64,000 nucleotides of DNA. Origin: an uncultured Dehalococcoidia bacterium (lineage in GTDB: Bacteria; Chloroflexota; Dehalococcoidia; DSTF01; RBG-16-68-14). Shown piece by piece: positions 34,271-50,029 of the stretch. The notes under the pieces were generated by a model. It made no database searches. It saw only the letters and a program-made list of their open reading frames with translations, and was not told the DNA's origin. The number at the start of each line of letters is the position of its first letter. Positions within the stretch are counted from its first letter, which is position 1. The stretch covers positions 150 to 64,149 of the forward strand of contig CAYQLM010000003.1 in the NCBI GenBank assembly GCA_964418365.1, written 5' to 3'. Made by a program: the position numbers and the translations under genes.

Positions 34271-35658
34271 GGCTGAGTTGCTCCTTCTGGCGCGGCAGGC
34301 CGCGCCCTGGGGTAACGCATGTTATCCCAACGCCGGTAGAAGGCAAGACGTAACTTGGACTCGAGGCTCGAGGCCAACGTCGTCGTCAGGGGCAGGAGGC
34401 GGCTCCACTTCTGAGCCGGCTCGGCAGACTCGCGACAGTACTCCACCAGTCCTTCCAGGACGCGCTCCCAGCGATATGCTTCCTTCTCCTTCCGCAGGTT
34501 CTCCTTGCACTGCACCACGAGGGCGCTGTCATCGGCCAGCCGAAGGATGGCTTCCGCCAGCGCGCCTTCGTTACGCTCTGGCACAGCGATTCCCAGCGGC
34601 CGGCGGGCGACCAGCTCGGCCCACACGTCGCCCTGGGTACAGACGATGGGGAGCTCCGTCCACAGCAAATCGAGGAGGCGAGAACGGAAGGAGAAATGCG
34701 TCTCAAGATTGTCGAAGTACGTGCAGATGCCAATGTCCGCCTCGCATAAGTAATTCACGGTGTCCTCGTATTCGATCCAGTCGAAGTTGAAAAAGACGAA
34801 CTTGTCCAGCAGGTCCAGCTCGCGGCAGAGCTGGTACGCGCTTCGCTGAGTACCGCCACCAAGGCCATGCAGCTTGGGAGCGTCGGTGTCTGGGTTATCC
34901 GGGTGTTCCGTGCCGAGGAAGAAGAGTTTAATGTCATGTCGCTGTTCGCTGATGCGATGGATGGCGTGGATCAGCGTCTCCACGTCGTACCATTCAATGA
35001 TGCCGCCGTTCCAAATGAGCAGCGTGTCCGTGGGCAGGATGCCGGGCCATACGCCTTTCAGCACACGACGCGTTGGCCTGGGCTCGTTGGGCCGGACGCC
35101 GAACGGCGCGAGTACGAGCAGCTTGGCGAGCCAGTGGTCGTCGTCGTACGTCTCAGGAGTCACCCGGCCGAGGGCGCTCAGCATGCCGAAATAGAGATCG
35201 CGCTGCCGCAGCGTGGCGCAAAGGATGCTGTCTGCCAGGAGCAGTTGCACCATCAGGTCGCGCGACAAGGAGTTGAAGAATGTGGTTTTGCGGGAGTCGT
35301 CGATACCGAAGAACTTCGCAACTTCAATCCATTCCGTAACGTACGGCGTGAACATGTCCAGCACCAGCCGCTTGCTCTGAAGCAGTGGAAGCAGGAAGAG
35401 CGGGAAGCGACTGCCGATCACAATGTCGCTCTTGCGCGTGGCCGCGGTCAACGCGCCGCGAGTGTACGGGACCGCGCGGAAGGGAACATCGGCCGCGATC
35501 TCGTCAGGCGAAGGCGTCGCCAGCGTCACTTGGGCGCCGGGCACGTTCTCGGCCAGCACGCGGGCGATGTGATAGGCGCGGATGCCCGGGCTGGCCATCC
35601 GGCGGCCGGTGCGGTTCTTGGTCGTGACGAGGATGCGTGGCCCTCCGTTCACGATCAT
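34267..35658 (-). CDS. GT-B glycosyltransferase, paralog B
   Basis: 463 aa. RMASPGIRAYHIARVLAENVPGAQVTLA ... YEDTVNYLCEADIGICTYFDNLETHFSFRSRLLDLLWTELPIVCTQGDV ... AILRLADD. ATGA overlap with the neighbouring genes. Confidence 0.6.
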   Translation of the reverse strand: MIVNGGPRILVTTKNRTGRRMASPGIRAYHIARVLAENVPGAQVTLATPSPDEIAADVPFRAVPYTRGALTAATRKSDIVIGSRFPLFLLPLLQSKRLVLDMFTPYVTEWIEVAKFFGIDDSRKTTFFNSLSRDLMVQLLLADSILCATLRQRDLYFGMLSALGRVTPETYDDDHWLAKLLVLAPFGVRPNEPRPTRRVLKGVWPGILPTDTLLIWNGGIIEWYDVETLIHAIHRISEQRHDIKLFFLGTEHPDNPDTDAPKLHGLGGGTQRSAYQLCRELDLLDKFVFFNFDWIEYEDTVNYLCEADIGICTYFDNLETHFSFRSRLLDLLWTELPIVCTQGDVWAELVARRPLGIAVPERNEGALAEAILRLADDSALVVQCKENLRKEKEAYRWERVLEGLVEYCRESAEPAQKWSRLLPLTTTLASSLESKLRLAFYRRWDNMRYPRARPAAPEGATQP

Positions 35659-36977
35659 ATCCTCAGCAGGAGTGACCTGAGCGTACGGATCCGCCGGGTG
35701 ATCTCATGGCCCGCGATGCGCGAGATGAGCGGCCCAACCCGTTCGCCCTTGGGCTTTGCGATCGACTCGCCGTCGTTGCAGAACTTGATCAGCGGCTCGA
35801 GCGCGACCTCCCAGGTCATGCAATGCTTGATGGCGTGGATATTGCGCTTGCACTCCTCGTAGAACTCGCGGTCGTCCAGGAGCCTCCGGATAGCGCCAGC
35901 CAGGCCAGGAACGTCGCGTTCCTTGACCGTCAGGCCGAGGCGGTGCTCTTCTACCGATTCGGCTAGCACGTCGCCCTTCGTGCAGATGAGGGGTACCTCT
36001 GCCCAGAAGACGTCCAGAAAGCGCGTTCGCAGGGAGAAGTTCGTCTCAAGCCCCTCGAAGTAGGTACAGACGCTGAGGTCCGCTTCCAGCGTGTAGTTCT
36101 TCATCTCTTCGTATGGGACCCAGCCGACATCGAAGAAGACACTGCGATTGTATAGCCCGAGTTCCCGTGATAGCGCTACCGCCTCCTGAAAGCGGCCGCC
36201 CAGCCCCAGGTTGTGCAGCCCGGGGTAGGACGCCCCCAGGAACAGGAGCTTCAGGTCGTCACGCTCGCGCGACAGCTTGGCGAGCGCGCTGATGAGCGTG
36301 GCTGGGTCATACCAACCAAGGATGCCGCCGTTCCACAGGATCAACTTGTCCGTCTCCTTGATCCCGGCGTACTGTCCCTTCACTACATGTTTCGTATGCT
36401 CCAGTGGATCGGGACGCACGCCGTGCGGCGCGACGCCGATGAGCTTGCGCAGCGATGGGTCCTTCGTGTGGCTGCGCGGGGTCACCAACCCGAGGCTTAC
36501 CATCGAGCCTAGGTGTGCATCGCGCTGCCGTTCGCTGGCCGCGAGCACGAAGTCGGCGAAGGTCAGCTGAATGTTGAGCAACTTTCGCGACTGCGAGAGC
36601 CAGGCGCCGCGGCGCAGCCGCGTGAAGCCCGGATCGTCCTTGGACGCCTCCGTCCATTCCAGGAGGTACTGCGTAAAAAAGTCCAGTACGAAGGTCTTCC
36701 AGGGAAAGAAGAAGAGCGCGTACGAGGGGAAGCCGGTGGCGATGATGATGTCGTGGGTAGCGATCTCGCGGATCACGGTCAGCTTGGTGTAGTAAACGAG
36801 ACGGCAGGGCGCGTTCTCGATCTTTCCTTGCGCGCTATCCGAGGCAACGGCGAGGGTGACGGACGCGCCGGGCACCTGTTCGGCGAGGACGCGCGCCATG
36901 TGATGAGCGCGGATGCCCGGGCTGGACATCCGCTCACCGTAGGCTGCTCCCGCGAGGATGAGGATTCGCTTCCCCAT
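35655..36977 (-). CDS. GT-B glycosyltransferase, paralog C
   Basis: 440 aa. RMSSPGIRAHHMARVLAEQVPGASVTLA ... YEEMKNYTLEADLSVCTYFEGLETNFSLRTRFLDVFWAEVPLICTKGDV ... AIRRLLDD. Confidence 0.6.
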   Translation of the reverse strand: MGKRILILAGAAYGERMSSPGIRAHHMARVLAEQVPGASVTLAVASDSAQGKIENAPCRLVYYTKLTVIREIATHDIIIATGFPSYALFFFPWKTFVLDFFTQYLLEWTEASKDDPGFTRLRRGAWLSQSRKLLNIQLTFADFVLAASERQRDAHLGSMVSLGLVTPRSHTKDPSLRKLIGVAPHGVRPDPLEHTKHVVKGQYAGIKETDKLILWNGGILGWYDPATLISALAKLSRERDDLKLLFLGASYPGLHNLGLGGRFQEAVALSRELGLYNRSVFFDVGWVPYEEMKNYTLEADLSVCTYFEGLETNFSLRTRFLDVFWAEVPLICTKGDVLAESVEEHRLGLTVKERDVPGLAGAIRRLLDDREFYEECKRNIHAIKHCMTWEVALEPLIKFCNDGESIAKPKGERVGPLISRIAGHEITRRIRTLRSLLLRI

Positions 36978-36991: not shown

Positions 36992-37456
36992 CTACTTGAC
37001 GGCCACGGACCAGTCGACCCCGGACTCCGCCGGCGTCATGCGCTCTTCATCAGGGTTCTTCTCGTCGTACTTAGACGTGATGTAGTACATCAGCACGGCT
37101 TCCTCGTCACCCAGGACCATGTAGCCGTGCCAGACGCCCGGCGGGATACTGAGCACGCGGCGATCGTTCTCCCCAAGATAGACCCATTTCACCTGCTTGT
37201 GCTCGTCCATCAGGCCCACTTTGAGATAGCCCTTAATCACGAACCAGTGGTCGGTCTGCTTCTGGTGCCGGTGCCACGCGACGACGCGTCCCGGATAGGC
37301 CCAGGTGATGTTGACGTCGCCGCCCATGTCCACGCTACCGTCCCCGGTGAAGCCGAAGACGTCGCAGGCGCGACGGGCGCGGTCATCATCGAAGAGCCGC
37401 GGCACGGAGACGCGGGCGTCAGCGACAGAGTTCCTGGCCTTCGCATCAGTGGTCAT
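36992..37456 (-). CDS. RmlC-like cupin (dTDP-4-dehydrorhamnose 3,5-epimerase-related, short form)
   Basis: 154 aa. WHRHQKQTDHWFVIKGYLKVGLMDEH...LSIPPGVWHGYMVLGDEEAVLMYYITSKYDEKNPDEER parallels the RmlC core (LRGLHyQ..KLVRv.G...DV..D........IP.G.aHGF..L). Confidence 0.6.
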   Translation of the reverse strand: MTTDAKARNSVADARVSVPRLFDDDRARRACDVFGFTGDGSVDMGGDVNITWAYPGRVVAWHRHQKQTDHWFVIKGYLKVGLMDEHKQVKWVYLGENDRRVLSIPPGVWHGYMVLGDEEAVLMYYITSKYDEKNPDEERMTPAESGVDWSVAVK

Positions 37457-37469
37457 GATCTACCTCCCC

Positions 37470-38363
37470 TTACTGTTCGTTCGGTTGCAGCTCGCCCCTT
37501 CTATGCAAGTAATCGGCCAATGCCTCCGGCCAGTCGCGCAGCAGCGGCACGCCGGCTTCCCGCAGCGCCGCGTTCTCAAGCACCGAGTATAGGGGCCTGC
37601 GCGCTTTCGCGCCGAACTCCGCTGTCGTCGTCGGTCTGAGCGAGGCGTTTGTGCCGGTAAGCGAGAAGATCTTGGCGCTGAACTCATACCACGAACAGGA
37701 GCCACCGTTCGTCACGTGGTACGTGCCGTATCGACGCGTGTCCGCGACCGCGAGGAGCTGCTGGGCAAGGTCGTACGTGAACGTCGGCGAGAGCACCTGG
37801 TCGTCCACGACGCGCAGGTCTTTGCCGCTGCGGCCCAGCTCGAGCATGCGCTGGACGAAGTTGCCGCCCTTCCCGCCCGATCCGGCCTCGCCGTATAGGC
37901 CCGACGTGCGCACGATGTAGTGCTTCTCGATTCTGGAGCGCACGAGCTGCTCCCCGGCGACTTTGCTTGCACCGTAGACATTGACGGGTGACGGCGCGTC
38001 CCGCTCGCTGTACGCGCGGCCAAGGTCGCCGGCGAAAACGTAGTCGGTGCTGATGAACATGAGCGCCGCCCCGATCTCGCTGCAGGCATCGGCAAGATTC
38101 ATCGCGCCGACGGCGTTCACCTGGAACGCGCGCTCCGGCTCGCTCTCGCAGAGATCGACATTGTGAAACGCCGCTGTGCTCACGACAAGCTCCGGGCTCT
38201 GGTCGCGAAGCGTGGCCAAGAGGCCATCGCGGTCGGTGATCTCAATCGCGTCGCGCGCGAGTCCGATCGTGTCGCCGTGCGGCCAGCGGCGCATGATGTC
38301 GCTGCCGAGCTGTCCTGCCGCGCCAATCACGACGGTACGCCTGCTCACGATTCGTTCGTCCAA
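37470..38363 (-). CDS. rmlD: dTDP-4-dehydrorhamnose reductase (RmlD-like)
   Basis: 297 aa. VVIGAAGQLGSDI, STDYVFAG, VNVYGASKVAGEQ (YxxxK), HVTNGGSCSWYEF. Typical RmlD length. Confidence 0.8.
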   Translation of the reverse strand: MDERIVSRRTVVIGAAGQLGSDIMRRWPHGDTIGLARDAIEITDRDGLLATLRDQSPELVVSTAAFHNVDLCESEPERAFQVNAVGAMNLADACSEIGAALMFISTDYVFAGDLGRAYSERDAPSPVNVYGASKVAGEQLVRSRIEKHYIVRTSGLYGEAGSGGKGGNFVQRMLELGRSGKDLRVVDDQVLSPTFTYDLAQQLLAVADTRRYGTYHVTNGGSCSWYEFSAKIFSLTGTNASLRPTTTAEFGAKARRPLYSVLENAALREAGVPLLRDWPEALADYLHRRGELQPNEQ

Positions 38364-39028
38364 ACGCGGCGTTCCGGCGCCGGCTCATCCGCCTTCTCGA
38401 TGACGCGCGCCGGCACGCCGACCGCGGTCGTCCATGCCGGAACTTCAGAGAGTACAACAGCGTTCGCGCCGATCTTAGCCCCACAGCCAACGCGTACTGG
38501 ACCGAGGATGCGCGCGCCGGTGCCAACGAACACGCCCTCTTCAAGGTGCGGGCCGATATACTCGCCTTGCACGAGACCAATGGAAATCGACGGGCACAGG
38601 ACACAGCCCTTACTGATGAACGTAATGCCATCGATCACCATCTCGCCGTGCGGAATGTACACGCCTTCCTTGATCACAACAGGGTTCCCGATCCGGATCC
38701 CCCAACCGATGGCGCAAACATAGTTCAGCAGCGACGGGATCACAGGGACGCGCCATGTGCGCAGGAGCACTCGCAGCCGGTATAACGCTAGCGCGAAATA
38801 CTCCGACGCGAAGAGCGGCAACCGCAGCGCGTAGAGCGCACGTCCCAGCTTCGTTCGGCACTTGTCCATCTCGCCGCGATGGTACGCGAACACGATCGCG
38901 TCGCGGGCGAGGGCGTGGAAGAGTGATGGGCGTTGGGACTCCAGGTTCTTCGCAAATTGCCGAAGCTGCTCCTCAGGCCGTGGTCGCGTCCCGCTCCAGA
39001 CTGTCCCGGGTCGCTCGAGGTCCGTCAT
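38345..39028 (-). CDS. Left-handed beta-helix (hexapeptide) acetyltransferase, serine-acetyltransferase-like; probable sugar O/N-acetyltransferase
   Basis: 227 aa. SATase-like N-terminal helices (YALRLPLFASEYFALALYRL), then hexapeptide repeats (IGWGIRIGNPVVIKEG..., IGANAVVLSEVPAWTTAVGVPARVI). Confidence 0.65.
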   Translation of the reverse strand: MTDLERPGTVWSGTRPRPEEQLRQFAKNLESQRPSLFHALARDAIVFAYHRGEMDKCRTKLGRALYALRLPLFASEYFALALYRLRVLLRTWRVPVIPSLLNYVCAIGWGIRIGNPVVIKEGVYIPHGEMVIDGITFISKGCVLCPSISIGLVQGEYIGPHLEEGVFVGTGARILGPVRVGCGAKIGANAVVLSEVPAWTTAVGVPARVIEKADEPAPERRVWTNES

Positions 39029-39036
39029 GCCCCGGG

Positions 39037-40065
39037 CTAGAAGACGCTGGGAAACTTGGCAAGGTAGGGATGGAGCTCATCGAGGAGTGTCATCCACGCG
39101 ATGTTGTAGTAGCGCGGGTGGTTAAAATCGATGCAGCCATTCTTCTCGATGCCGAGCAGCATCTCTTCGACTGACTCCAGAATGGTCACGCCCGGCGTAA
39201 ATCCGATCGCTTGGCGCAGCTTCGAGTTGTCGCACTTATAGTCACGCACGAGCTTCGGCAGCGGTGCGTCCTTCAGCTTCGGACGGTACTTGCGCATCTG
39301 CGCAGAGCCTGCTACCAGCATCGCCAGACCGCGGATCTGGAAGTTGTCGTGCACGACGTTAAAGGTCTGCGCGTGCACCTTCTCGCGCGGCGCCTCCAGC
39401 ACCGCAATGTGCGCGCGGGCGACGTCCTTCACGTCAACGAGCGGACGCCACATCCAGCCGCCGCCGTGGAGCTGCAGCTCGCCGTTTTGCACCGCCGCCC
39501 GGACGAACGTGTTCACGACGAGGTCGAAGCGCATGCGCGGGCTGGCGCCGTACACCGTGCCCTGACGCAGCAGGATCGGGCTGAAGTCGTCACTGGCGTG
39601 CTCCAGCAGCGCGATCTCACCCTCGTACTTCGATGTCGCGTATGCGCCGCGCGGCTGGACGTCGGCGGTCTCGTCGTAGACCGGGCCAGGCGGCAGGCCG
39701 TCGTAAATCGAGCAGCTGGAGCCGTAGGACAATCGCTCAACGCCCACCCGTTTGCAGGCCTCCGCCAGCGCTCGGGTCGCCACGGCGTTCATCTGGTGGT
39801 TCGCTTCCGGGTTCATCTCCGCCGTCGGGTCGTTGGAGAGGCCGGCGAGATGGATCACCGCGTCGGCGCCTTCCAGCACGTCATCGCACAGGCTGCGCAC
39901 GTCCTGCTGGACGAGTTCGATCTGGTCGAGCACAGGCGCGAGCGGTTTCTCGCCCCAGTAGAGCCGGTCGACGACGCGCACGTGCCAGTCCTGGTCGACC
40001 AGCATGCGCACCAGCACGGAGCCGATGTAGCCCGCGCCGCCCGTCACGACGACTGTCCTGCTCAC
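39037..40065 (-). CDS. NAD-dependent sugar-nucleotide epimerase/dehydratase (extended SDR)
   Basis: 343 aa from GTG (complement 40063-40065). VVVTGGAGYIGSVLV, catalytic YATSKYEGE. The ORF-track 5' extension (to 40569) has no protein-like content. First gene of the minus glycan operon. Confidence 0.8.
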   Translation of the reverse strand: MSRTVVVTGGAGYIGSVLVRMLVDQDWHVRVVDRLYWGEKPLAPVLDQIELVQQDVRSLCDDVLEGADAVIHLAGLSNDPTAEMNPEANHQMNAVATRALAEACKRVGVERLSYGSSCSIYDGLPPGPVYDETADVQPRGAYATSKYEGEIALLEHASDDFSPILLRQGTVYGASPRMRFDLVVNTFVRAAVQNGELQLHGGGWMWRPLVDVKDVARAHIAVLEAPREKVHAQTFNVVHDNFQIRGLAMLVAGSAQMRKYRPKLKDAPLPKLVRDYKCDNSKLRQAIGFTPGVTILESVEEMLLGIEKNGCIDFNHPRYYNIAWMTLLDELHPYLAKFPSVF

Positions 40066-40297
40066 AACCTGTCCGTCTCCCTGAGCCTGCAGGGCCCTGA
40101 TACGAAATAAGCCTCTGGCGGCAGCGACCGGCCTGCTCGCTTTACCCAGAGGTGGCGGGGTGGAGCAAGTATAACGTACATACTCTGTCAAGTAAACGCG
40201 CAGCCGATCGCCCCTATTACTGCGCCGCTTTGGCGAACGCCGAACGCCTCGGATAGACTGGAGCACCCCTAAGCGAGCAAAGGTCCGGGAGGCTCCC

Positions 40298-41068
40298 ATG
40301 GCATACGAAACGCTGCTTGTCGAACGCGATGGTGCGGTGATGACCGCGCTGCTCAACCGTCCGGACAAACGCAACGCCATGAACCGACAACTGCACCTCG
40401 ACCTCCAGCAGCTATGCCACGAGCTGTCCACGGACTTCGATACGCGCGTCGTCATCTTTGCCGGCGAAGGGCCCGGCTTCTCCTCCGGCGCCGACACGAG
40501 CGAATGGGGGCAGCCCGGACCCGACAACGAGCTCGAGCTGCGCCACATGTCCGCGATCGGCGGACGCACCTCGGACGCGATCGATGGGCTCGATCAGATC
40601 AGCATCGCCGCGGTGCACGGCTTCGCCGTCGGAGGAGGCGCCGTCATCGCCGCATGTTGCGACTTCCGCGTTGCGGGCGAGAGCGCCTGGTTCTTGATAC
40701 CGGAGGTCGAGCTGGGCATCCCGCTGAGTTGGAACGCGCTGCCCCGTTTGGCGCGTGAGCTCGGCCACGCGAAGGCGCTGGAGTTGACGATCGTTTGCGA
40801 GCGCTTCAGCGCGCAGCAGGCGTTCGATTGGGGTCTCGTCACGCACCTCGTGCCGGACAGCCAGGAGCGAACATTCGCGCACGAGCTCGCCGGCAAGATC
40901 GTCGCGAAGCCGCCGCTGCCCGTCGCGCTGACCAAGGCGTCGATGAAGGCGATCAAGCGCGGCACTGAGTCGGGCAATGTCTCCTATAGCGACGGCGATC
41001 TGCTGCTCTACAGCCGGTTGCTGCAGCAGCGCGCGCGCCGGCGCCTGGCAAGCGAACACCCGGGCTAA
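40298..41068 (+). CDS. Enoyl-CoA hydratase/isomerase (crotonase family)
   Basis: 256 aa. VVIFAGEGPGFSSGAD oxyanion-hole region; AAVHGFAVGGGAVIAACCDFRVAGESAWF. Confidence 0.85.
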   Translation: MAYETLLVERDGAVMTALLNRPDKRNAMNRQLHLDLQQLCHELSTDFDTRVVIFAGEGPGFSSGADTSEWGQPGPDNELELRHMSAIGGRTSDAIDGLDQISIAAVHGFAVGGGAVIAACCDFRVAGESAWFLIPEVELGIPLSWNALPRLARELGHAKALELTIVCERFSAQQAFDWGLVTHLVPDSQERTFAHELAGKIVAKPPLPVALTKASMKAIKRGTESGNVSYSDGDLLLYSRLLQQRARRRLASEHPG

Positions 41069-41153
41069 CGTTGATCTGCTACCATCCCGAGAAATAGCCC
41101 GGCTGCGGCCGCGTTGGTATACTTGAGCACCTTTCGCCCGGGGGAGTGCGCAA

Positions 41154-43604
41154 TTGCAGCGAAGTGACACCGTGAGGGCAACGCCGGCCGTGTATGGCGG
41201 GCTGTTCTTCACGACACTCAGCACGCTGATGTACGAAGTTCTGCTCACGCGGATCTTCAGCGTGACGATGTGGTACCACTTCGCGTTCGTAGCAGTTTCG
41301 GTCGCGTTGTTCGGCATGACCGTCGGCGCGCTGATTATCCACCTCGTGCCGAGTCGTTTCACACAAGACGACACGCGCGACCGCCTCGCTCAAGCATCGT
41401 TGCTGTTCAGCGTCTCGATAGTGCTGAGCTTTCTCACGCAGTTGGTCATCCCGTTCGACGCCCACTGGTCGCTCACGGCGATCTACTCCACGTCGCTCAT
41501 CTACCTGGTCATCTCGGTGCCGTTCATCTTCAGCGGCGTTATCGTCGCACTGACGCTGACTCGTTTTCCAAACCAGGTGAGCCGGCTCTATGCGGCCGAT
41601 CTGATGGGTGCGGGCCTGGGGACGGTGACGCTAGTGTGGCTGATCAACGTCCTCGGCGATGGGCCGTCCACCGTCGTGGTCGTCGCGGCGCTGGCGGGCA
41701 TAGGTGCGTGCCTGTTCGCAACCGCAGCGGGCCGTTCACGCCTGCTCAGGTTCGCGGCCGCCGTCGCTGTACTCTGGGCGATCGGCGGCATCGGGAATGC
41801 CTTCTCCGCCCAGCATTACCATCCGATCCTACGCATTCGCTGGGCGAAGGGCGCGGAAGAAACAACAGCCCGCTACGAGCGGTGGAACGCGTTCTCGCGC
41901 ATTCGAGTAGTAGGCGACCCGAATACGGTCTCGCCACCCTTCGGATGGGGTTTCAGCCCGGCTCTGCCGGCCAACGCCCAGGCGCACCAGATGGGCCTGA
42001 ACATTGACGCAACGGCTGCGACGTTCTTGACTAAGTTCAGTGGCAACACGGCCGACGTCGACTACCTTCGCTATGACGTGGTCAACATTGCTCACTACCT
42101 GCGATCGAATGCGCGCGTGTTCGTGATTGGGGCCGGCGGGGGTCGCGATGTGCTCACTGCCCTCCTCTTTCAGCAGCAGTCGGTCACAGCGGTAGAGATT
42201 AACAACGCGATCTTGAAGGCCGTAAACAACAAGTATGGCGACTTCACCGGTCACCTTGATGAGCTGCCCAACGTCCACTTCGTGAACGACGAGGCGCGCA
42301 GCTATCTGGCCCGCTCCGACGACAAGTATGACATTATTCAGCTCTCGCTCATCGATACCTGGGCAGCGACAGCGGCGGGCGCTTTCTCCCTCTCAGAGAA
42401 CTCGCTCTACACCGTGGAGGCTTGGGACACGTTCCTCAATCGCTTGGCTCCAAACGGTGTGCTAAGCGTGTCGCGCTGGTACCACGTCGACAGGCCGTTG
42501 GAGTCGTACCGGGTCACGGCGCTGGCCGCCGCAGCACTGCGGCGCCGCGGCATCACGAATCCGCGGGACCATATCATCCTGATTCGAAATCCGGCGACGT
42601 CTTACTTGGGGCCGGGCATTGCCGTGAGTACGATCCTGGTGAGCCCGGAGCCATTCTCACAGGCCGACATCGATCGGGTCGAGCAGGTGGCTCAGGACCT
42701 GCGAGACGAGGTGGTCCTTGTACCGGCGCCGGCACCAAGCGATCCGGTGTTTGCTGCGATCGCGGACGCGAAAGACCCGAACTCCGTCCCCCTCGGCATT
42801 CCCGCCAATATCTCGGCGCCCACGGATGACCGGCCGTTCTTCTTCCAGATGATCCGCTTCCAGGACATCTTCAGCCGGTCGCTCTACGGCGTCGGGACCC
42901 AGTATCTGACGCAACCGGTGCTCGTGCTCTTCAGCCTCGCCATCGCCATGCTCGTTCTAACCAGTCTCTGCATTCTGCTGCCACTCGCCATCACGACCAG
43001 CCGGCAGGCATTGCACGGCATGGCGCCGTTCGTGGTCTTTTTCGGCGGGATCGGTCTGGGGTTCTTGCTGTTGGAGATCGCGCAATTGCAGCGGCTCATC
43101 ATCTTTCTCGGCCATCCTACGTATGCCCTCTCGGTCGTGCTGTTCTCGTTGTTGGTTTTCAGCGGTATTGGCAGCTTTGTAACGGAGCAGATCATCAGTC
43201 CGGGCCGACGGGCGTTCCTGTTACTGCCGTTTGTCGCACTCCTCGCGGTGCTGGTAGCGGCCGGGGTTGCGACGCCCCATATCACGCACAGCTTCGACGA
43301 CGCGACCACGCCAGTGCGCATCATTACCGCGGTAGCGCTTCTCGCGCCGATGGGTCTCCTCATGGGCATGCCGTTCCCCATCGGCATGACGCTGGCGTCC
43401 CGGCAGAAGGACGCGCCCACCGCGTTCTTCTGGGGGATCAACGGAGCAACCTCCGTGCTCGCCTCCGTGCTCGGCGTTGCCATCGCGCTGCAATGGGGCA
43501 TCTCGATTGCATTTTGGGTGGGCGTCGGCTGGTATGCCGTCGCAGCGCTAGCCCTGGGAAGCATCGTCAGCAGAGGACGTTCAACGGCGGGTACCTATGT
43601 ATGA
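41154..43604 (+). CDS. Fused polytopic membrane protein with central spermidine-synthase-like (PABS, class I MTase fold) domain
   Basis: 816 aa. N-terminal ~7 TM helices. Central VFVIGAGGGRDVLTALLF...VTAVEINNAILKA...YDIIQLSLIDTW (GxGxG and acidic residues of aminopropyltransferases). C-terminal ~6 TM helices. Confidence 0.6.
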   Translation: MQRSDTVRATPAVYGGLFFTTLSTLMYEVLLTRIFSVTMWYHFAFVAVSVALFGMTVGALIIHLVPSRFTQDDTRDRLAQASLLFSVSIVLSFLTQLVIPFDAHWSLTAIYSTSLIYLVISVPFIFSGVIVALTLTRFPNQVSRLYAADLMGAGLGTVTLVWLINVLGDGPSTVVVVAALAGIGACLFATAAGRSRLLRFAAAVAVLWAIGGIGNAFSAQHYHPILRIRWAKGAEETTARYERWNAFSRIRVVGDPNTVSPPFGWGFSPALPANAQAHQMGLNIDATAATFLTKFSGNTADVDYLRYDVVNIAHYLRSNARVFVIGAGGGRDVLTALLFQQQSVTAVEINNAILKAVNNKYGDFTGHLDELPNVHFVNDEARSYLARSDDKYDIIQLSLIDTWAATAAGAFSLSENSLYTVEAWDTFLNRLAPNGVLSVSRWYHVDRPLESYRVTALAAAALRRRGITNPRDHIILIRNPATSYLGPGIAVSTILVSPEPFSQADIDRVEQVAQDLRDEVVLVPAPAPSDPVFAAIADAKDPNSVPLGIPANISAPTDDRPFFFQMIRFQDIFSRSLYGVGTQYLTQPVLVLFSLAIAMLVLTSLCILLPLAITTSRQALHGMAPFVVFFGGIGLGFLLLEIAQLQRLIIFLGHPTYALSVVLFSLLVFSGIGSFVTEQIISPGRRAFLLLPFVALLAVLVAAGVATPHITHSFDDATTPVRIITAVALLAPMGLLMGMPFPIGMTLASRQKDAPTAFFWGINGATSVLASVLGVAIALQWGISIAFWVGVGWYAVAALALGSIVSRGRSTAGTYV

Positions 43605-43663
43605 TCCATGGACACGACGCGCATCCCGTGCTCATATGTGTCAGCCATCCATTATGATCGGGC

Positions 43664-43830
43664 ATGGCTGTGAAGCCGCCGCTGCCGGTCGCGCTCACCA
43701 AGGCGTCGATGAAGGCGATCAAGCGCGGCGCTGAGTCGGCCAACGTCGCCTACAGTGACGGCGATCTGCTGCTCTACAGCCGCCTGCCGCAGCAATTCGC
43801 GCGCCGGCGCGCGAAACAACGCAACGAATA
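43664..43830 (+). pseudogene. Remnant duplicate of the crotonase 3' end (55-codon in-frame fragment)
   Basis: 43673..43830 aligns base-for-base, in frame and ~88% identical, with 40907..41068. It encodes KPPLPVALTKASMKAIKRGAESANVAYSDGDLLLYSRL... Confidence 0.5.
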
Positions 43831-43914
43831 GCTGCCGAACGACGCGCTCATGGAGGCAAGCGCCCCTGCGCGAAGATGCACAGGGGCGCTCGCTTTGGTT
43901 ACGAATCGTTTGGA

Positions 43915-45093
43915 CTACTGAGTGACCTTCACCGTTCCTCCCATGCCTGGGTGAACGATGCACACATAGTTGTACGTCCCGGCCTTCGTGAACGTCACCT
44001 TGTACTGGTAGATCGGATCTCCGAACGACACGATGACGCCAGAACTCAGGAACCCAGTGCCATCCCAGTTGCCCGCATCGATGAGCGGGGGTGCGCTCGG
44101 ATCGGTCGGCTGGCCCGGGCTCTTGGATGGTGCACCCGCCTTCTCGTTGGCGTGATACGCACCGTCAGCACCCTTCACGAGCAGGCTCTTGGCATCATCC
44201 GGGGCGTTGAAGCTGATCGTGTGCACACCATCGACACTCCACGTCACCGACTCGCCCTCTTTGATGTCGATCTCCTTCGGACCGAACTCGTTCACTCCCG
44301 CTTCCTGCACGTCCGGCGACGAGGCTCCAGCCTGCGCCTTGTCCGCAGTGAGCGAGGTGAGCTGATCGGCCGTCGGCTTGAGCTTCGTCACCATCTGGCT
44401 GAACTCGTCATCGCCCTTTGCCTTCTGCTCGGAAGGCTTCGGCACGCTCGTGCCCTTGGCGACAACGGTGATGGTGCCGCTCATGCCTGGTCGGTGAAGC
44501 AGACAGTAGTAATGGTACGTGCCGGGCTTGATATTCGACGCCAGCTTCACGGAGAAGACGGCAGCTTCGGGCAAGAATCCGCTGTTGTAGTAAGTCTGCG
44601 TGCCGTCGAAGTCCATCTGCGTTTGCTGGGGCTTCGCGCACGCCGATCCGTCACTGGGCGCGTCGCCGCTCGCGAGGTAGCAGGGCTGTCCCGCCGCCTG
44701 GATGACATCGCCAGGGCCTTCTGGGAATAACGACGGCAGCTTTGCGGTCGCCGTGTTGTACTGGTCGGCGTACTGTTCCGGCGGCCCCTGCTGGCAGTCC
44801 GGGTCGGCGAGGCCGCCGTTGGGGCATGCCTGCGAGATGACGTTGAACACGTCATCAACATCCCGGCCCAGCGTGACCGTATGCGGCTCCCCGCTGAAGA
44901 TGCTGGTGAAGTCAACGGTATCCCCTGGATGGACTTGCACGTCGTTTGGGAAATATGCCAAGAACGCGCCGATGAACTCGCCCGATCTGCCGTCGACCTG
45001 AACAGAGAACGTCTTCGCGCCGCCTCCGCTGCTTTTGCAACCGGCGCCCAGTAGCGCCGCTGCGGCTAGCAAAATGAGTACACCCTTCCACAT
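43915..45093 (-). CDS. Lipoprotein with two cupredoxin (plastocyanin/azurin-like) blue-copper domains
   Basis: 392 aa. Signal peptide plus lipobox LLGAGC. Two copies of the type-1 copper motif C-x2-H-x2-M (YHYYCLLHRPGMSGTITV; YNYVCIVHPGMGGTVKV) with upstream His candidates. Confidence 0.7.
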   Translation of the reverse strand: MWKGVLILLAAAALLGAGCKSSGGGAKTFSVQVDGRSGEFIGAFLAYFPNDVQVHPGDTVDFTSIFSGEPHTVTLGRDVDDVFNVISQACPNGGLADPDCQQGPPEQYADQYNTATAKLPSLFPEGPGDVIQAAGQPCYLASGDAPSDGSACAKPQQTQMDFDGTQTYYNSGFLPEAAVFSVKLASNIKPGTYHYYCLLHRPGMSGTITVVAKGTSVPKPSEQKAKGDDEFSQMVTKLKPTADQLTSLTADKAQAGASSPDVQEAGVNEFGPKEIDIKEGESVTWSVDGVHTISFNAPDDAKSLLVKGADGAYHANEKAGAPSKSPGQPTDPSAPPLIDAGNWDGTGFLSSGVIVSFGDPIYQYKVTFTKAGTYNYVCIVHPGMGGTVKVTQ

Positions 45094-45278
45094 AGGTATC
45101 CGGTCCCTCCCTGTGAATCCCCCTGGGTTGCTTGAACGCGACGACTGCCAGCGAGCCCCGGCGGGTCGGCGCTGAGGCTACAATACTTACCTCTTCCCTC
45201 ACGATCAAGCCACCAGGCGGCGGGAAGCCTGATAGAAAAGGACTCGTAGATTCGCTACGATTGCTCTGCGGAAGCCGG

Positions 45279-45356
45279 GCCCCGGTAGCTCAGATTGGAC
45301 AGAGCAACGGTTTCCTAAACCGTGGGTCGCAGGTTCGAATCCTGCCCGGGGTACCA
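45279..45356 (+). tRNA. tRNA-Arg (anticodon CCT)
   Basis: Cloverleaf folded by hand: acceptor gccccgg/ccggggt (G1-U wobble), D-arm gctc-agattggac-agagc, anticodon arm acggt-ttCCTaa-accgt, T-arm gcagg-ttcgaat-cctgc, discriminator A, encoded CCA. Confidence 0.85.
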
Positions 45357-45522
45357 CGTTTCGTATACAGAATCCACCGATGGCCGCGTGACAACGCGCG
45401 CCTTCAGACGAATTGACAGCAACGCGAACGTAGACGCTACCAAGTCGCGGGCTAGTTGTAGATCAGCGGACGACGCGACCGAATGCTGTTGAGCGCTAAC
45501 CGCTGAGCAGCGCGTCTAACGC

Positions 45523-45960
45523 TTGCTCGGCGTGCCGTTGCCGGGTTGGTGTCTCAGTCAGTGGATCGTGCGAAGCACGATCCCGCCTGTTACCCGAAAT
45601 ACGCTGTACTTCGTCTACCTACCGCCCGACATCAGCGCCGTCGCCGCCGATGGGACGCGTTCTTGTAGAAAGTTCTGCGGCTATCACGGCAACGTCAAAG
45701 GGACTCGCGTTCTCCACGCCGTCGAACCCCACGTGAGCTGCCAAGGATGTAGCTTCGGCAACGGTGTCGTGGACTCCCTGACCAAGGTGAGCAGCCACGA
45801 GCCGTGTGCGGCGATCACAGACCCAGAGGGTGACGGCTGGTACGACGATGTCTCCTGGGACAAGATCGGCGATATCTGCAACAACGAGGTTACTCGGTTG
45901 GGACCCTACACGATCCAGGAGGAGTGGTCGGACTCCCGTCAGCGCTGCGTAATCTCATAG
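45523..45960 (+). CDS. Hypothetical protein, probably a 5'-truncated gene fragment adjacent to the tRNA
   Basis: 145 aa. Cys-rich region FCGYHGN...VSCQGC...EPCAAITDPEGDGWYDD. No signal peptide or convincing N-terminus. The family call (possibly PHI-1-like) is weak. Confidence 0.3.
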   Translation: MLGVPLPGWCLSQWIVRSTIPPVTRNTLYFVYLPPDISAVAADGTRSCRKFCGYHGNVKGTRVLHAVEPHVSCQGCSFGNGVVDSLTKVSSHEPCAAITDPEGDGWYDDVSWDKIGDICNNEVTRLGPYTIQEEWSDSRQRCVIS

Positions 45961-46019
45961 ATCACGGCGGGCCTTCTCAGCATACCCTGCGACGTTGCAC
46001 CATGACCCGCTAGTGTGGC

Positions 46020-49000
46020 CTACGCCTTCGGGTTGACAGGCAACTGCGGCGGCCAGGGGTTTTGGCACATGCTGGTCAGCCGTCCGAACACGAACTGCAG
46101 GTCGTTGATGTTGATTTCGCCGTCACCCGCCATCTGCCCGGACGGCATCAGGTCGTAGCGCGTGCCGTAGAACAGGCTCCCTATCGTCGACGCCCAGCGG
46201 AACGCCACCTGCTGCGCGTCCATCACGTCCACGATGCAGTCCCCGGTCACATCGCCCTCCAGGTAGCGGATCGTCACGTCGCCGTCGTCGCAGGAGAAGA
46301 TCGGGATCGGGTGCCCCTGCAGGTCCGATAGCTGGCACCCCTGGTTCAGGATCTGCACGGCGATGCCGTTGTCCTGGTTGGGCAGGATCTGTGAGTACAA
46401 CTCCGGCTGCGGTCGCACGACGATGTCCGCCAGATGGCGCCCCTCAGGTGTGTGCGTATCCGGGAAGACGTTCTTACCCGGCGAGACGCAGCCGATCCGC
46501 GCGATCCCCTTCAGTGTGGAGTTCGTCGCGTCCTGGATCGTGCAGACCATCGAGCTAGCCGCAGGCCCCGGCACCAGCTGCACGCAGACGAGCTTCTCGT
46601 CGTACCGCACCTCGAACTCGAACGCGCCCAGGCGCTCCAGCTGCGCCGGGTCCTTGGGGTCCTGCGATGTGATGGGCGCGCTGAGCTGGTGCGTGAAGAG
46701 CGCCACGTTCGTGCCGTCTTGGCAACGGACCGGCGCCAGCTTCTCGCCTTGTCTCGTGAGGAAGAGGTTCTGCAGCGCCGGCAGCTTGGTAAGCTCGCGC
46801 ACGGGCGTAAACGTCACCGCCCCCAGCGTCCCACGCGCACTCTTAGCCTGATCCACCAGCGCGACGTTGTTCTTGGACAGGTAGTGGTCGCCGGGTTCAG
46901 CCTGGCCCGCACCGCTGGTCGTGAAGATCGTCAGAGCGTTCATGTTCTTTACTATCAGATCGGGAACGCCGTCGGACGGCACGCTGGTATCGACGTACAC
47001 GTACAAGAACACGTCGAAAAAGCTGGTGCATGGTGTTGCCGGGGCGCACTCGAGAATGCCCGGCTGGGCATTCGGCGGTTGCTCCTCGATGTAGCCGATG
47101 GAGCGTTCAAAGAGGCTCTCGGTGACCCACATGGGGAAGCTGTCAGCGCCGAACTGCGCGGTGCCGGAGAGGAACATCTGCACGATCTCCGTTTCCACAT
47201 CGTCCTGGCCCTTGTGGAGCGTCAACGAAGATGGTCCGATGCCGTCGCGGTCGCCGGCGGCGGCGTCGCGCAAGATGCACGTGTGGCCGAACAGCTCGGC
47301 GCTGCCCGCGCCGAGCGCTGGGTCGGTCAAGCTGAGGTCGATGGTCGCGATGGAGCTGCCCAGATCGTCGAGGAGCTTCCCCGCCGCCGGAGCCGGGCAG
47401 GGGGTGCCCGGCGGTGGCAGAGGCGTGTCAGCTGGTTTCGATATGGTGGTCACCCATGCGCTGCGACCATGCGTCGCCGCAACCAGGGTGTTGTCCTGCG
47501 TGTTGAGCAGCAAGTCCTGCACGACCACGTTGGGCAGCGACCCCTTGTTGAAGTTGTCCCACGTTGCGCCGCCGTCGGTCGAACGGAAGACGCCGCCATC
47601 CGTGCCGGCGTAGAGCGTAGGAGGGCTGGTCCTGGGATCGATGGCGAGCGCGTTGACCGGGATGTTCGGCAGATCCCCGCTGATGTCCGCCCAGGCGCCG
47701 CCGGCGTTGGCGGTGTGAAAGACGTGCCCGCTGCCGCCGTATGGGTCGAACCCGCTCAGCGTCACGTAGGCGCTGGTAGCATCGTTGGGGTCGACGGCGA
47801 TGTCGCTAACGTATCGATAGGGCAGCCCGTTGGGCTGCGTCTCGGTCCAGGTGTTGCCGCCGTCAGTCGTGACGTCGAGGCCGCCGTAGGAACCCACGTA
47901 AATCACGTTGCTGCTGCTCGGCGCCGGGCCAATGGCGGAGATCGCGTCGTAGCCGAGGGGCGGGCTGATCGGCTCCCAAGATAGCGCTCCGTCCGTTGTC
48001 CGGTAGAGGCGGCTCGCGCCCGCATAGAGCGTGTCCGGGTTCGAAGGGCTCATCACCAGGGGCGCGATGAAGAGACGCAGCTCGTTGAAGGGGATGCCGT
48101 TCATGGCCGGGTACCAGTTGGCGCCGCCGTCGTAGGACTTCTCGATTTGGAGGTATTGGAATGTGTGATAGATAAGCTGTGGGTTGTCCGGGTTCACGGC
48201 CGCGTAGCCGCCATCGCCACCGGCCACCTGCTTCCACACGGGAGAGCCGGTGTAGCGCAGGGTGCCGTTGTCTTGCGTGCCGCCAAGGAACATGGCGGGA
48301 GATGTTACGCTGCCCGCCGTGCCCGGATAGAACTGCGTGATGGCCAGGTTTCCGTTCAGGTTTGCGAACGTGGTTCCGCTCCTGCGCCAGATGCCGCCGT
48401 CGTTGCCTATGTACAGGCGCCCCTGGCTGTCGAACGCCAGGGCGTGCTGGTCCACATGGATCGCGCCGGGGAAAAAGCCGATGAGGTCCGCGAAGTGCGC
48501 GCCGCCGTCGGTGGACTTGAACAGGTCGATCCCCCCTGCGTACACCGTGTTGGCGTCGGCCGGGTCTACGATCAGGGCGTTGTTGTACCAACACTGGCTG
48601 ACAGTGATGAATAACGGAAAGGGATAGCGGTCGCAGTAGTGCGAGTCGTTTCCCAGGTTCGTCCAGTTCGCGCCGCCGTCCGTGGTCCGGTAGACGCCGT
48701 TCAGTCCACCGCCCTCCGCCAGCGCGGCATACACGGTTTGCGGCTGGCTGGGCGCGATGGCCAAGATGACCACGTCTGAATACCCTGGCGGTTGGAGCAC
48801 CAGGTTCCAGGTATCGCCGCCGTCGATGCTCTTGTATACGCCGCCTGAAGAGTAGCCCGCGTCGACGCCGGCGTACAACGTCGCCGGTGCGGAGGGGTCG
48901 AGCTCGATGTCCCAGGCAGGCCCAGCGAGCTTGTTCGTCCAGGTGACGCCGCCATCGATGGACTTGTAGATTCCAGCTCCGCATGATCCAGGGCCACCGA

Positions 49001-49712
49001 AGGCGCCGCCGCTGGCCAGATAGAGGGTTGAGGGCGCGGTCGGATCGATAGCGATCCTGCCCACGCGGCACCCCGCGAAGGTATTCGAGGCCAGGAGCGT
49101 CCAGTTGTCGCCGCCGTCGGTGCTCTTGAGGATGCCTGCCCCGCCGTAGGAGGTAAGGCTGGCGTAGTCATTTTCGCCGGTGCCGGCGTAGACGATATCG
49201 GCGTTGGTCGGGTCGATGGCGAGCGCGCCCATCGAGAGTGACGGCTGCCGGTCGGTGAGGGGTGTCCAGCTCCCACCGCCATCCGTGGTCTTCCAGACCC
49301 CGCCTCCGGCCGCACCGATGTAGATGACGTTATCGTCGACCGGCGATACCGCGATGTCTTGGATGCGACCGGAGGCGGCACCCGTTGGGGTGAGGAGCCG
49401 GACGGCATCGATGGGGGCGGGCCCCAGCGGCGTCCAGGGCGGGCCGTCGACCGGCGAACCTGCCAGCGCGCCCTGCTGCTGGGCTTGGAGCAGGCCCTGC
49501 GCCTGGATGCCGGCGGGGATCTGCGTGCCAGGAAAGGCGCGCTGACGGTAAAACCAGTCGTCCTGGGCCCGGTGGTCGTGAATGAACGCGTCCGGCGGAG
49601 GCGATCCGGCGGACTGAGCCGTGCCCGGCTCCTGCGCCTGCCCTGTATCGTTCGATAGTGGAGCGCCCAAAAGTAGCGCTGCGCCGATCGCCGCAGCGAA
49701 GACAAGGAGCAC
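46020..49712 (-). CDS. Very large secreted BNR/Asp-box repeat protein (sortilin/GH74-like beta-propellers) with C-terminal dockerin-like module
   Basis: 1230 aa. N-terminal signal peptide MLLVFAAAIGAALLLGAPLS. At least 10 S-x-D-G-G-x-(T/N)-W Asp-box motifs (TDGGGSWTPL, STDGGDNWTL, SIDGGVTWTN, TTDGGANWTN, STDGGATWDN...). C-terminal paired Ca-binding-loop-like segments GDVTGDCIVDVMDAQQV and AGDGEININDLQFVFGRL. Confidence 0.7.
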   Translation of the reverse strand: MLLVFAAAIGAALLLGAPLSNDTGQAQEPGTAQSAGSPPPDAFIHDHRAQDDWFYRQRAFPGTQIPAGIQAQGLLQAQQQGALAGSPVDGPPWTPLGPAPIDAVRLLTPTGAASGRIQDIAVSPVDDNVIYIGAAGGGVWKTTDGGGSWTPLTDRQPSLSMGALAIDPTNADIVYAGTGENDYASLTSYGGAGILKSTDGGDNWTLLASNTFAGCRVGRIAIDPTAPSTLYLASGGAFGGPGSCGAGIYKSIDGGVTWTNKLAGPAWDIELDPSAPATLYAGVDAGYSSGGVYKSIDGGDTWNLVLQPPGYSDVVILAIAPSQPQTVYAALAEGGGLNGVYRTTDGGANWTNLGNDSHYCDRYPFPLFITVSQCWYNNALIVDPADANTVYAGGIDLFKSTDGGAHFADLIGFFPGAIHVDQHALAFDSQGRLYIGNDGGIWRRSGTTFANLNGNLAITQFYPGTAGSVTSPAMFLGGTQDNGTLRYTGSPVWKQVAGGDGGYAAVNPDNPQLIYHTFQYLQIEKSYDGGANWYPAMNGIPFNELRLFIAPLVMSPSNPDTLYAGASRLYRTTDGALSWEPISPPLGYDAISAIGPAPSSSNVIYVGSYGGLDVTTDGGNTWTETQPNGLPYRYVSDIAVDPNDATSAYVTLSGFDPYGGSGHVFHTANAGGAWADISGDLPNIPVNALAIDPRTSPPTLYAGTDGGVFRSTDGGATWDNFNKGSLPNVVVQDLLLNTQDNTLVAATHGRSAWVTTISKPADTPLPPPGTPCPAPAAGKLLDDLGSSIATIDLSLTDPALGAGSAELFGHTCILRDAAAGDRDGIGPSSLTLHKGQDDVETEIVQMFLSGTAQFGADSFPMWVTESLFERSIGYIEEQPPNAQPGILECAPATPCTSFFDVFLYVYVDTSVPSDGVPDLIVKNMNALTIFTTSGAGQAEPGDHYLSKNNVALVDQAKSARGTLGAVTFTPVRELTKLPALQNLFLTRQGEKLAPVRCQDGTNVALFTHQLSAPITSQDPKDPAQLERLGAFEFEVRYDEKLVCVQLVPGPAASSMVCTIQDATNSTLKGIARIGCVSPGKNVFPDTHTPEGRHLADIVVRPQPELYSQILPNQDNGIAVQILNQGCQLSDLQGHPIPIFSCDDGDVTIRYLEGDVTGDCIVDVMDAQQVAFRWASTIGSLFYGTRYDLMPSGQMAGDGEININDLQFVFGRLTSMCQNPWPPQLPVNPKA

Positions 49713-50001: not shown

Positions 50002-50029
50002 TTGACGGACCCGGGCGCGGTGCTATACT
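50002..50029 (+). promoter_or_regulatory. Sigma70-like promoter TTGACG-N16-TATACT upstream of the lipoprotein hydrolase gene
   Basis: Hexamers and 16-bp spacing read directly. It lies ~135 nt upstream of the ATG at 50165. Confidence 0.4.

Follow-up and report, generated by a model that had tools for sequence, protein, structure and literature searches.

How does the 3′ end of a conserved gene come to stand on both sides of an unrelated membrane-protein gene? The question is raised by a 64,000-nucleotide stretch of contig CAYQLM010000003.1 from an uncultivated member of the Dehalococcoidia (the window), in which an enoyl-CoA hydratase (crotonase) gene is followed by a gene for an 816-aa membrane protein and then by a second, partial copy of the crotonase 3′ end. 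We find that the locus is best read as an insertion allele, consisting of a 2,627-bp insert and a 139-bp duplication of its target. Related loci and sequences are referred to below by L and P numbers.

A duplicated crotonase 3′ end brackets a single gene

The features that make up the allele are as follows.

40298..41068, plus strand: crotonase gene, 256 aa, with codons 1–249 native and codons 250–256 and the stop from the insert (PF00378 ECH_1)
40906..41044, plus strand: repeat copy A, crotonase codons 204–249, in the working gene (repeat search and self-BLAST)
41045..41068, plus strand: novel crotonase tail LASEHPG and TAA, read from insert DNA
41045..43671, plus strand: inserted segment of 2,627 bp, holding seven crotonase codons and stop, a promoter-like region, the membrane gene and a 67-bp 3′ flank; absent from orthologous loci
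41154..43604, plus strand: inserted gene for an 816-aa polytopic membrane protein with a central core like that of class-I S-adenosylmethionine (SAM)-methyltransferases/aminopropyltransferases (PF01564 below its cut-off; PDB 1uir)
43664..43831, plus strand: relic open reading frame (ORF) of 55 codons, a pseudogene fragment (ORF list), with an insert-derived ATG at 43664
43672..43810, plus strand: repeat copy B, crotonase codons 204–249, displaced and decaying (repeat search)
43811..43831, plus strand: ancestral crotonase tail AKQRNE and TAG, running on into ancestral downstream DNA; alignable with the tails of L001, L176 and L004

A repeat search of the window returned positions 40906–41044 and 43672–43810 as a direct repeat of 139 nt with 90% identity, and BLAST of the full 64-kb window against itself recovered the pair with E = 5.8e-48. 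This is the only repeat above 86% identity that self-BLAST found in the 64 kb, the others being matches of 66–85% among paralogous glycosyltransferase genes. The spacing from copy A to copy B is 2766 nt, a multiple of three, and the codon phase is identical in both copies, whose translations share 41 of 49 residues (E = 7e-26). An in-frame direct repeat of the crotonase 3′ end, bracketing one gene only, had been predicted from the window; both the repeat and the single gene between its copies (41154–43604, 816 aa) are confirmed. The homologous unit is shorter than the ~160 bp originally proposed, and the stop-proximal codons, which had been counted as shared, are not part of it: similarity stops at 41044/43810, and the end codons beyond are wholly different, LASEHPG and stop after copy A and AKQRNE and stop after copy B.

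Relatives carry the crotonase without the insert

In L001, L002, L003, L012 and L177–L179, whose crotonases are 98% identical to that of the window in amino acids and 94.8% in DNA and which represent at least five assemblies, the insert is absent. In L004, L005, L006 and L007 (90% in amino acids) and in L173 (86%), the crotonase gene directly adjoins a convergent cupredoxin gene, with nothing between the two. When empty-site loci, L001, L004 and L173 among them, were compared with the window by BLAST, homology ran to 41044 and resumed at 43672/3; the breakpoints of the insert were set from the comparisons with these three loci. Neither a membrane gene nor a second crotonase fragment was present within 6 kb in L012–L022, and no second crotonase, full-length or partial, occurs in any of ~20 orthologous loci. 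Likewise, neither the inserted gene nor the crotonase has a second copy elsewhere in the window. The locus comparison suggested with the original prediction has thereby yielded relatives that hold the gene without the insertion, and a full-length second crotonase, the arrangement that was to speak against an insertion, was not seen in those ~20 loci.

The structure is not peculiar to one contig. An independently assembled JGI contig of 4,074 bp (L008) is 99.6% identical to the window and runs through the two junctions and the two copies alike. It differs from the window at 16 positions, 14 of which lie in two tight clusters, and neither repeat copy is affected. One cluster comprises 5 differences within 32 bp (43379–43410) at the 3′ end of the membrane gene and the other 9 differences within 46 bp (44701–44746) in the cupredoxin gene; this clustering suggests short recombination tracts or consensus errors arising from strain mixtures.

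The relic retains the ancestral 3′ end

The crotonase matches Pfam PF00378 ECH_1 with E=6.1e-39 and 134.3 bits, against a gathering cut-off of 27, and no NCBIfam equivalog model matched it at its cut-off. Hundreds of close orthologs, all of 252–259 aa, are found in Dehalococcoidia metagenome-assembled genomes (MAGs) and in metagenomes. Their C-termini end in an invariant ...QQRARRR followed by a short variable tail, which in the nearest relatives is AKQRDE, SKQRDE or TKQRDA and in P0245 is AKPRNE. The tail LASEHPG occurs in 0 of the 37 orthologs inspected, and the exact 256-aa crotonase is found on one public contig only. The tail that follows copy B has its stop at the position seen in L001, L176 and L004 and leads into DNA that is found 3′ of the crotonase in relatives. 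Because the tail, stop and downstream DNA of copy B match those of orthologs and the tail of copy A is unique, the relic holds the ancestral 3′ end, and the working enzyme consists of native codons 1–249 and seven codons read from the insert. The original prediction had taken the copy A segment for the real C-terminus; the ancestral C-terminus instead sits on copy B, and the working gene takes its last seven codons from insert DNA. No mosaicism with respect to L001 is seen in the intact crotonase, which keeps 89–100% identity in every 90-nt window of the gene.

Copy B does lie in a 55-codon ORF (43664–43831, plus strand), as had been proposed, but the ATG is not its own: because position 43664 lies to the left of the repeat boundary, in insert-derived sequence, this start codon is fortuitous. 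That the frame is still open is unremarkable, because drift amounts to only ~8%. The ORF has no Pfam match, its exact protein is found on the source contig and L008 only, and we regard it as a pseudogene fragment.

Decay and age of the duplicated copy

Copy B is closest to copy A, from which it differs at 14 of 138 nt, compared with 15 differences from L176, 16 from L001 and at least 22 from all others, and it was not imported from any of the foreign lineages sampled. Differences between functional genes are nearly all at third positions (copy A and L001 differ at 0, 0 and 8 sites in the first, second and third codon positions), and those between copies A and B are distributed 4, 3 and 7. When polarised with outgroups, copy B carries 8–9 unique changes spread across all codon positions, and these include five non-synonymous nucleotide changes at otherwise invariant residues, namely T223A, G226A, L242P and R245F, the last of which is a double change. 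The non-synonymous excess has P = 0.003–0.007 against the omega of the gene (0.066) and P = 0.13 against neutrality. The comparison of non-synonymous and synonymous rates (Ka/Ks) that had been proposed for the duplicated fragment therefore points to relaxed constraint on copy B, compatible with neutrality.

Because the per-site divergence of copy B is about equal to the synonymous divergence (dS) of the functional gene since the split from L001 (0.19 for the pair), the insertion dates from about the time of that split (~5% DNA divergence), before the window and L008 separated (0.4%). The empty sites, the proximity of copy B to copy A and the unconstrained changes in copy B lend support to the original reading of an insertion with a flanking duplication that has since diverged.

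The inserted segment is one transcription unit

Four further features bear on the content and expression of the insert.

41115..41146, plus strand: conserved upstream block, with TGgTATACT at 41115–41123 (extended -10-like) and GGGGGAG at 41140–41146 (like a ribosome-binding site, RBS); aligned with L009, L010, L011 and L092
43605..43671, plus strand: 3′ flank of the insert, 67 bp, which supplies the relic ATG at 43664; matches L008 only
43856..43893, no strand: GC-rich hairpin (inverted repeat I20) with 16-nt arms, 88% complementary, and a 6-nt loop, between the relic and the convergent cupredoxin gene
43915..45093, minus strand: cupredoxin-domain protein of 392 aa, the ancestral convergent neighbour of the crotonase (PF00127, E=5.3e-14)

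The GC content of the insert is unremarkable and its composition is not anomalous. No terminal inverted repeats pair its ends at 41045 and 43671, no structure at those ends is more stable than in shuffled controls, and the fold of the 3′ flank likewise does not exceed that of shuffled sequence. Pfam and NCBIfam searches found no transposase in the insert, and the 816-aa membrane protein is its only substantial ORF. A scan of 18 individual ORFs from 36992 to 56272 found no tyrosine or serine recombinase domain. When the insert end segments 41045–41105 and 43605–43671 were searched for in all examined loci and in the window, only L008 matched, and 43605–43671 showed no homology to crotonase 5′ regions or to the spacer between the membrane gene and the crotonase in L174.

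In an alignment of the inserted gene with L009, L010, L011 and L092, homology fades ~40 bp to the right of the junction. The upstream TGnTATACT and the G-rich or purine-rich RBS are kept across lineages whose membrane proteins are only 70–80% identical, and this block could serve as an example of a Dehalococcoidia promoter; a simple sigma-70 scan did not call the block at 41115–41146. The TTG at 41154 aligns with the ATG of relatives, and the public gene call starts at the GTG at 41190 (804 aa). A terminator scan found no terminator-like site between the crotonase and the inserted gene, and none between the inserted gene and the relic. Because the first strong hairpin is that at 43856–43893, with no terminator-like site before it, the inserted gene probably has two sources of transcription, its own promoter and read-through from the crotonase, with the old crotonase/cupredoxin terminator as the end point; the hairpin itself is probably an ancestral bidirectional terminator that now serves the inserted gene. 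An Rfam scan of 40000–45600 returned tRNA only.

The inserted protein had been called spermidine-synthase-like, a name that it does not bear out at curated thresholds: PF01564 scores 16.4 bits, below its cut-off of 22.9, and NCBIfam PRK00811 scores 20.8 against a cut-off of 260. The resemblance is one of the core, in which residues ~319–439 resemble that of PDB 1uir/3anx (E=2.3e-4 for 1uir). RefSeq labels the plasmid homologs of the protein as class I SAM-dependent methyltransferase. P0121 is 100% identical, and the next homologs are 80%, 75% and 75% identical in amino acids, after which identity falls to 70%. The genes at 80%, 75% and 75% have different surroundings, made up of DUF6311, LPG_synthase_TM, acyltransferase and NUDIX genes. 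Plasmid-borne relatives reach at most 37% identity, and none were found on phages.

A break inside a palindrome and the favoured origin

43796..43815, no strand: perfect palindrome of 20 bp, TTCGCGCGCCGGCGCGCGAA, in copy B; in the window no perfect palindrome is longer

The left junction, between 41044 and 41045, falls within a perfect 16-bp GC palindrome, 5 nt beyond its centre, with CGCGCGCC on one side of the junction and GGCGCGCG on the other. This ancestral palindrome, CGCGCGCCGGCGCGCG, spans the break point of copy A, which keeps 10 bp of it; at the homologous site it is present in L001 and absent from L176, L004, L173 and L172. The junction also coincides with the first codon of the naturally variable crotonase tail. 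Both junctions of the insert are illegitimate joints.

In copy B, a tandem CG to TT change (R245F; compare 41029–41031 in copy A) perfects the 16-bp palindrome into the 20-bp TTCGCGCGCCGGCGCGCGAA. Such a change would be the signature expected of a quasipalindrome template-switch mutation, and it was tolerable only after the fragment had ceased coding.

The ancestral locus had an epimerase gene divergent from the crotonase and a cupredoxin gene convergent with it, and a 2,627-bp segment entered the crotonase 3′ end as one complete transcription unit, with a promoter-like region, the 816-aa membrane gene and 67 bp of 3′ flank. We propose that the entry was a single illegitimate, recombinase-independent event, either a template switch during replication or repair or a break, at the 16-bp GC palindrome. 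The segment would have been copied in and synthesis would have restarted 139 bp behind its point of departure, duplicating the target and leaving codons 204–249 (139 bp) on both sides of the insert. The upstream copy has kept the conserved C-terminal helices and gained seven insert-derived codons, and the downstream copy, the displaced original 3′ end without the first 203 codons, has drifted unconstrained. With the break placed where the hypervariable tail begins, at its first codon, the enzyme would have survived it and selection would have retained the event. RecA-mediated deletion between the 139-bp repeats would restore a normal crotonase of 255 aa, which would make the insertion reversible. 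This one-step mechanism is the one that we tentatively favour, while granting it slightly less than an even standing; the insertion allele together with this proposed origin is the best overall explanation, and we hold it with moderate confidence.

Several observations weigh against this account. At 40982 and 41018 copy B has the base of L176 and of all outgroups, and copy A and L001 share derived bases; only ~0.13 chance reversions are expected at these positions. Copy B also shares Ala229 and the tail residue Asn254 with P0245, a member of the same ≥90% cluster. A strict in-situ duplication after the L001 split does not predict this sharing. The event may predate the split of copy A and L001, with the insertion allele later lost or replaced in the L001 lineage, from which recombination between the repeats may have removed it cleanly; a later homologous exchange may have converted copy A; or two slightly different alleles may have given rise to the two copies, as in the first alternative set out below. 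The donor of the insert ends was not found among the examined loci, and single-stranded DNA from this region does not fold more stably than shuffled controls. Lastly, L172 and L092 share the gene order of divergent epimerase, crotonase and membrane gene in the absence of a duplication, and given these two loci the placement of the membrane gene beside the crotonase may not be the coincidence of a random insertion.

Alternative origins of the allele

The alternative that survives best, although we consider it unlikely, is a Campbell-type integration, in which a circle bearing the membrane gene and the 139-bp crotonase fragment, probably from another strain, entered through a single RecA crossover. 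The geometry of the locus is identical to that of single-crossover products, the repeat being an internal fragment of the target with no native 3′ end on the upstream copy and no codons 1–203 on the downstream one, and there is experimental precedent in Escherichia coli, where a circle with a partial lacZ end left duplications of 109–950 bp (PMC3240628). A second allele would also account for the appearance of the copies at 40982/41018, where copy A and L001 are derived and copy B is ancestral, and for the Ala229 and Asn254 that copy B has in common with P0245; the natural pair of crotonase and membrane gene in L172 and L092 could have been the source of such DNA. However, this route needs the same two illegitimate joints (41044/41045 and 43671/43672) plus an extra crossover. 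No plasmid or circle of the kind is known, no circular donor was present among the loci examined, and the plasmid relatives at ≤37% identity and the lack of phage relatives offer none. The polarised differences along the repeat show no clean reciprocal switch point, the excess of changes in copy B is non-synonymous decay rather than allelic divergence, and LASEHPG occurs in no sampled crotonase, that of L172 included. A corollary of such integration is that the arrangement could shuttle between strains by reverse and forward reactions.

A more speculative reading, which we judge improbable, is that the 2.77-kb unit is a recombinase-free cassette that loops out through RecA and re-enters at the crotonase 3′ end in related strains. 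If true, strains throughout the population would use the crotonase as a docking site, on the border of a hypervariable cell-envelope glycan locus, and both the two-allele look of copies A and B and the three configurations of the membrane gene beside the crotonase would be explained.

Tandem paralogy followed by decay is very unlikely. It would have the membrane gene and a whole crotonase duplicated or imported, with codons 1–203 of the downstream copy lost later. In L174 and L175 a membrane gene of the same family does stand directly upstream of the crotonase, the spacer in L174 is of similar length (69 bp, compared with 67 bp here), and the relic ORF starts with ATGGC as the crotonase does; yet the L174 membrane gene is only 56% identical and belongs to another subfamily, and neither the L174 spacer nor any crotonase 5′ region aligns with the 67 bp to the left of copy B. 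Among the ~20 orthologous loci no relative has two crotonases, and at least two extra deletions would be required.

Slightly less probable again is a remnant of a site-specific integrative element attached at the crotonase 3′ end, with the repeats as attL and attR. Direct repeats of the 3′ part of the target do flank the insert, the layout of intact gene, insert and displaced 3′ fragment is that of a tRNA-Arg island 1.4 kb away, and the break lies inside a palindrome, as is often the case for recombinase core sites. But a search of the insert, of the ORFs next to it and of the nearby tRNA-Arg island turned up no integrase or recombinase domain, and what was inserted is a single ordinary cluster gene that brings its own promoter. 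Copy A, which restores the gene, is native-like rather than element-borne, being 94% identical to L001 with synonymous differences only, and L172 has the same gene after its crotonase with no repeats.

Three other processes were considered and set aside. Homology-facilitated illegitimate recombination (HFIR) with a divergent donor is disfavoured, the intact crotonase not being mosaic and the target being duplicated rather than deleted. Insertion of an insertion sequence or transposon finds neither transposase nor terminal inverted repeats here, and the duplication is 139 bp long. Displacement of a C-terminus of the kind known from rhs, contact-dependent inhibition (CDI) and type VI secretion system (T6SS) loci does not describe a new tail of seven codons with an unrelated membrane protein as cargo.

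Finally, an assembly artefact, whether a chimeric join or collapsed strain variants, would suit a MAG contig whose clustered differences from L008 hint at strain mixtures, but it is ruled out to a negligible residue because the independent contig L008 shows the same structure across both junctions and copies at 99.6% identity, the copies differ at 14 positions and reads therefore place unambiguously, and the decay pattern of copy B is biological.

The crotonase borders a plastic envelope-glycan region

What lies downstream of the crotonase varies across close relatives and includes cupredoxin, sulfotransferase-like, hypothetical and membrane-protein genes, with yet another gene at the P0003 locus. 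L172 and L092, with a crotonase at 81% and a membrane protein at 71%, match the gene order of the window from the epimerase through the crotonase to the membrane gene; their crotonase tail is native, and a GT-C-like gene then follows the membrane gene. In L174 (5472–7931) and L175 (1980–4439) a 56%-identical family member lies immediately upstream of the crotonase. Members of the membrane family thus adjoin the crotonase in three ways: upstream of it at 56% identity; downstream of it at 71% and with no duplication (L172, 1440–3881); and downstream of it with the duplication, as in the window. This may reflect a functional link between the two genes or simply the border of the cluster.

Screening of 83 loci with relatives of the membrane protein for bracketing repeats or an adjacent crotonase found a crotonase in L092 and L172 only, without repeats. 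Two pairs of distant loci have direct repeats of 36–63 nt (78–83% identity) that flank the membrane gene ~200–350 bp from its ends; these are at 168–222 and 3071–3133 in L161 and at 4692–4746 and 7595–7657 in L171, and also occur in L104 and L109.

Upstream of the crotonase, at 24.6–40.2 kb, lies a 15.7-kb glycan cluster with an ABC transporter, methyltransferases, paralogous GT1 genes, a cupin, an RmlD-like gene, a hexapeptide transferase and the epimerase. It is common to L173 (77% DNA identity over 7.9 kb) and is shared in part by L001 and L172; in L004, a single phosphoesterase gene takes its place between a flippase gene and the crotonase. Three paralogous glycosyltransferase genes in the cluster are 67–74% identical in DNA (34432–35236 and 28984–29782; 35959–36140 and both 34616–34797 and 29171–29350) and hold short patches of 85% (36865–36932 and 35534–35601). 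Both flanks of the crotonase are variable; the gene itself is conserved, an island on the margin of a very plastic envelope-glycan region.

Because part of the neighbourhood of L009, a block 62–78% identical in amino acids, matches the window at 30.35–33.2 kb, the inserted gene appears to belong functionally with the envelope-glycan cluster upstream of the crotonase. The further idea that this cluster is the orthologous home of the gene had to be toned down, the DUF6311, acyltransferase and LPG_synthase genes being 39–45% identical and differently ordered. A tracking of membrane-gene identity with crotonase identity also proved weak: sample 3300052992 contains lineages at 86% (L173) and 98% (L177), and because it holds both, L010 cannot be assigned to either genome.

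A second site of rearrangement lies on the far side of the cupredoxin gene. A tRNA-Arg(CCT) gene at 45279–45356 is followed by a segment of ~7.2 kb that is absent from L001 and L004, that carries genes for a 1,230-aa BNR/sortilin-like protein and a tannase-like hydrolase, and that ends at ~52509–52545 in a partial copy of the tRNA 3′ end, beyond which the sequence is that found after the tRNA in L001. This segment is a classic tRNA-targeting island; no integrase or recombinase was found in it. In L001, as in L002, L012, L177 and L178, the cupredoxin gene is cut to a remnant of 21 codons. These loci further have two partial 5′ copies of the tRNA-Arg region before the intact tRNA, with unannotated genes of 93, 362 and 129 aa between them (in L001, the features concerned are at 1217–1250, 2146–2253 and 4244–4321). 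These remains suggest serial island accretion at the same tRNA in the closest relatives.

Implications

The locus offers a clean natural example, from an uncultivated Dehalococcoidia bacterium, of a gene inserted into a conserved gene without destruction of the host gene. The duplicated 139 bp preserves the C-terminal helices, the dispensable tail alone is replaced, and the flanking repeats would keep the change reversible. The crotonase marks the boundary of a plastic envelope-glycan region, with a tRNA-Arg island hotspot 1.4 kb away. For annotation, the 55-codon ORF is to be treated as a pseudogene fragment and the crotonase C-terminus as chimeric, and the inserted protein should not carry the name of spermidine synthase.

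Comparison with known systems

Transposons duplicate 2–14 bp of their target. Direct target repeats flank the insert here too, but they measure 139 bp and come without a transposase or terminal inverted repeats. The elements e14 and phage 21 at icd, and islands at tRNA genes, integrate at the 3′ end of a gene and bring a substitute 3′ end. Compared in layout rather than in sequence, they have in common with the crotonase locus an intact gene, an insert and a displaced partial 3′ copy, arranged as direct repeats; here, in contrast, no integrase was found, the substitute copy is native-like and the cargo is a single gene.

In rhs, CDI and T6SS effector loci, C-terminal displacement leaves orphan 3′ fragments (Jackson et al. 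2009, as cited in PMC5361080; Kirchberger et al. 2017, PMC5361080). In those loci, as here, the conserved part of a gene acquires a junction with incoming DNA, and the old 3′ end, pushed downstream, persists as an orphan. There, however, the incoming DNA brings a new functional toxin tip and an immunity gene and the orphans are reusable, whereas here it brings seven arbitrary codons and, as cargo, an unrelated envelope gene; the orphan is in decay and shares 139 bp with the retained gene.

HFIR is known from Streptococcus pneumoniae, Acinetobacter baylyi and Pseudomonas stutzeri (summarised in PMC3240628 and PMC5361080). The likeness lies in foreign or relocated DNA that stands beside a conserved gene as homology anchor and has an illegitimate joint at its other end. 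True HFIR usually deletes recipient DNA (PMC3240628), of a size similar to the DNA gained, whereas here the target is duplicated and the crotonase has no donor tract.

Closest in geometry are the E. coli lacZ products of Campbell-type integration, in which an integrated circle bearing a partial gene end gives flanking duplications of 109–950 bp (PMC3240628). In both cases the insert is flanked by a direct duplication, ~100–1000 bp long, of the end of the target gene, foreign DNA follows the upstream copy, the 5′ part is missing from the downstream copy, and homologous recombination can reverse the arrangement. The crotonase locus differs in having no known circular donor, in the edges of its 139-bp segment, which are illegitimate joints, and in being a natural and old event whose copies have diverged by 10%.

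The mechanism that we favour has its counterparts in templated insertions of the type ascribed to fork stalling and template switching (FoSTeS) and microhomology-mediated break-induced replication (MMBIR), and in quasipalindrome template-switch mutagenesis (e.g. PMC7202029 and PMC8794818). Shared with these are breakage at an inverted repeat, insertion of a copied segment between duplicated sequences, and a CG to TT change that perfects a palindrome; they differ in that the template locus and junction microhomologies were not found for the crotonase insert, so that the match is an inferred one. The scar is clean but ordinary for genome rearrangement, and the locus adds one more case to a known kind of rearrangement scar and is not a new biological system.

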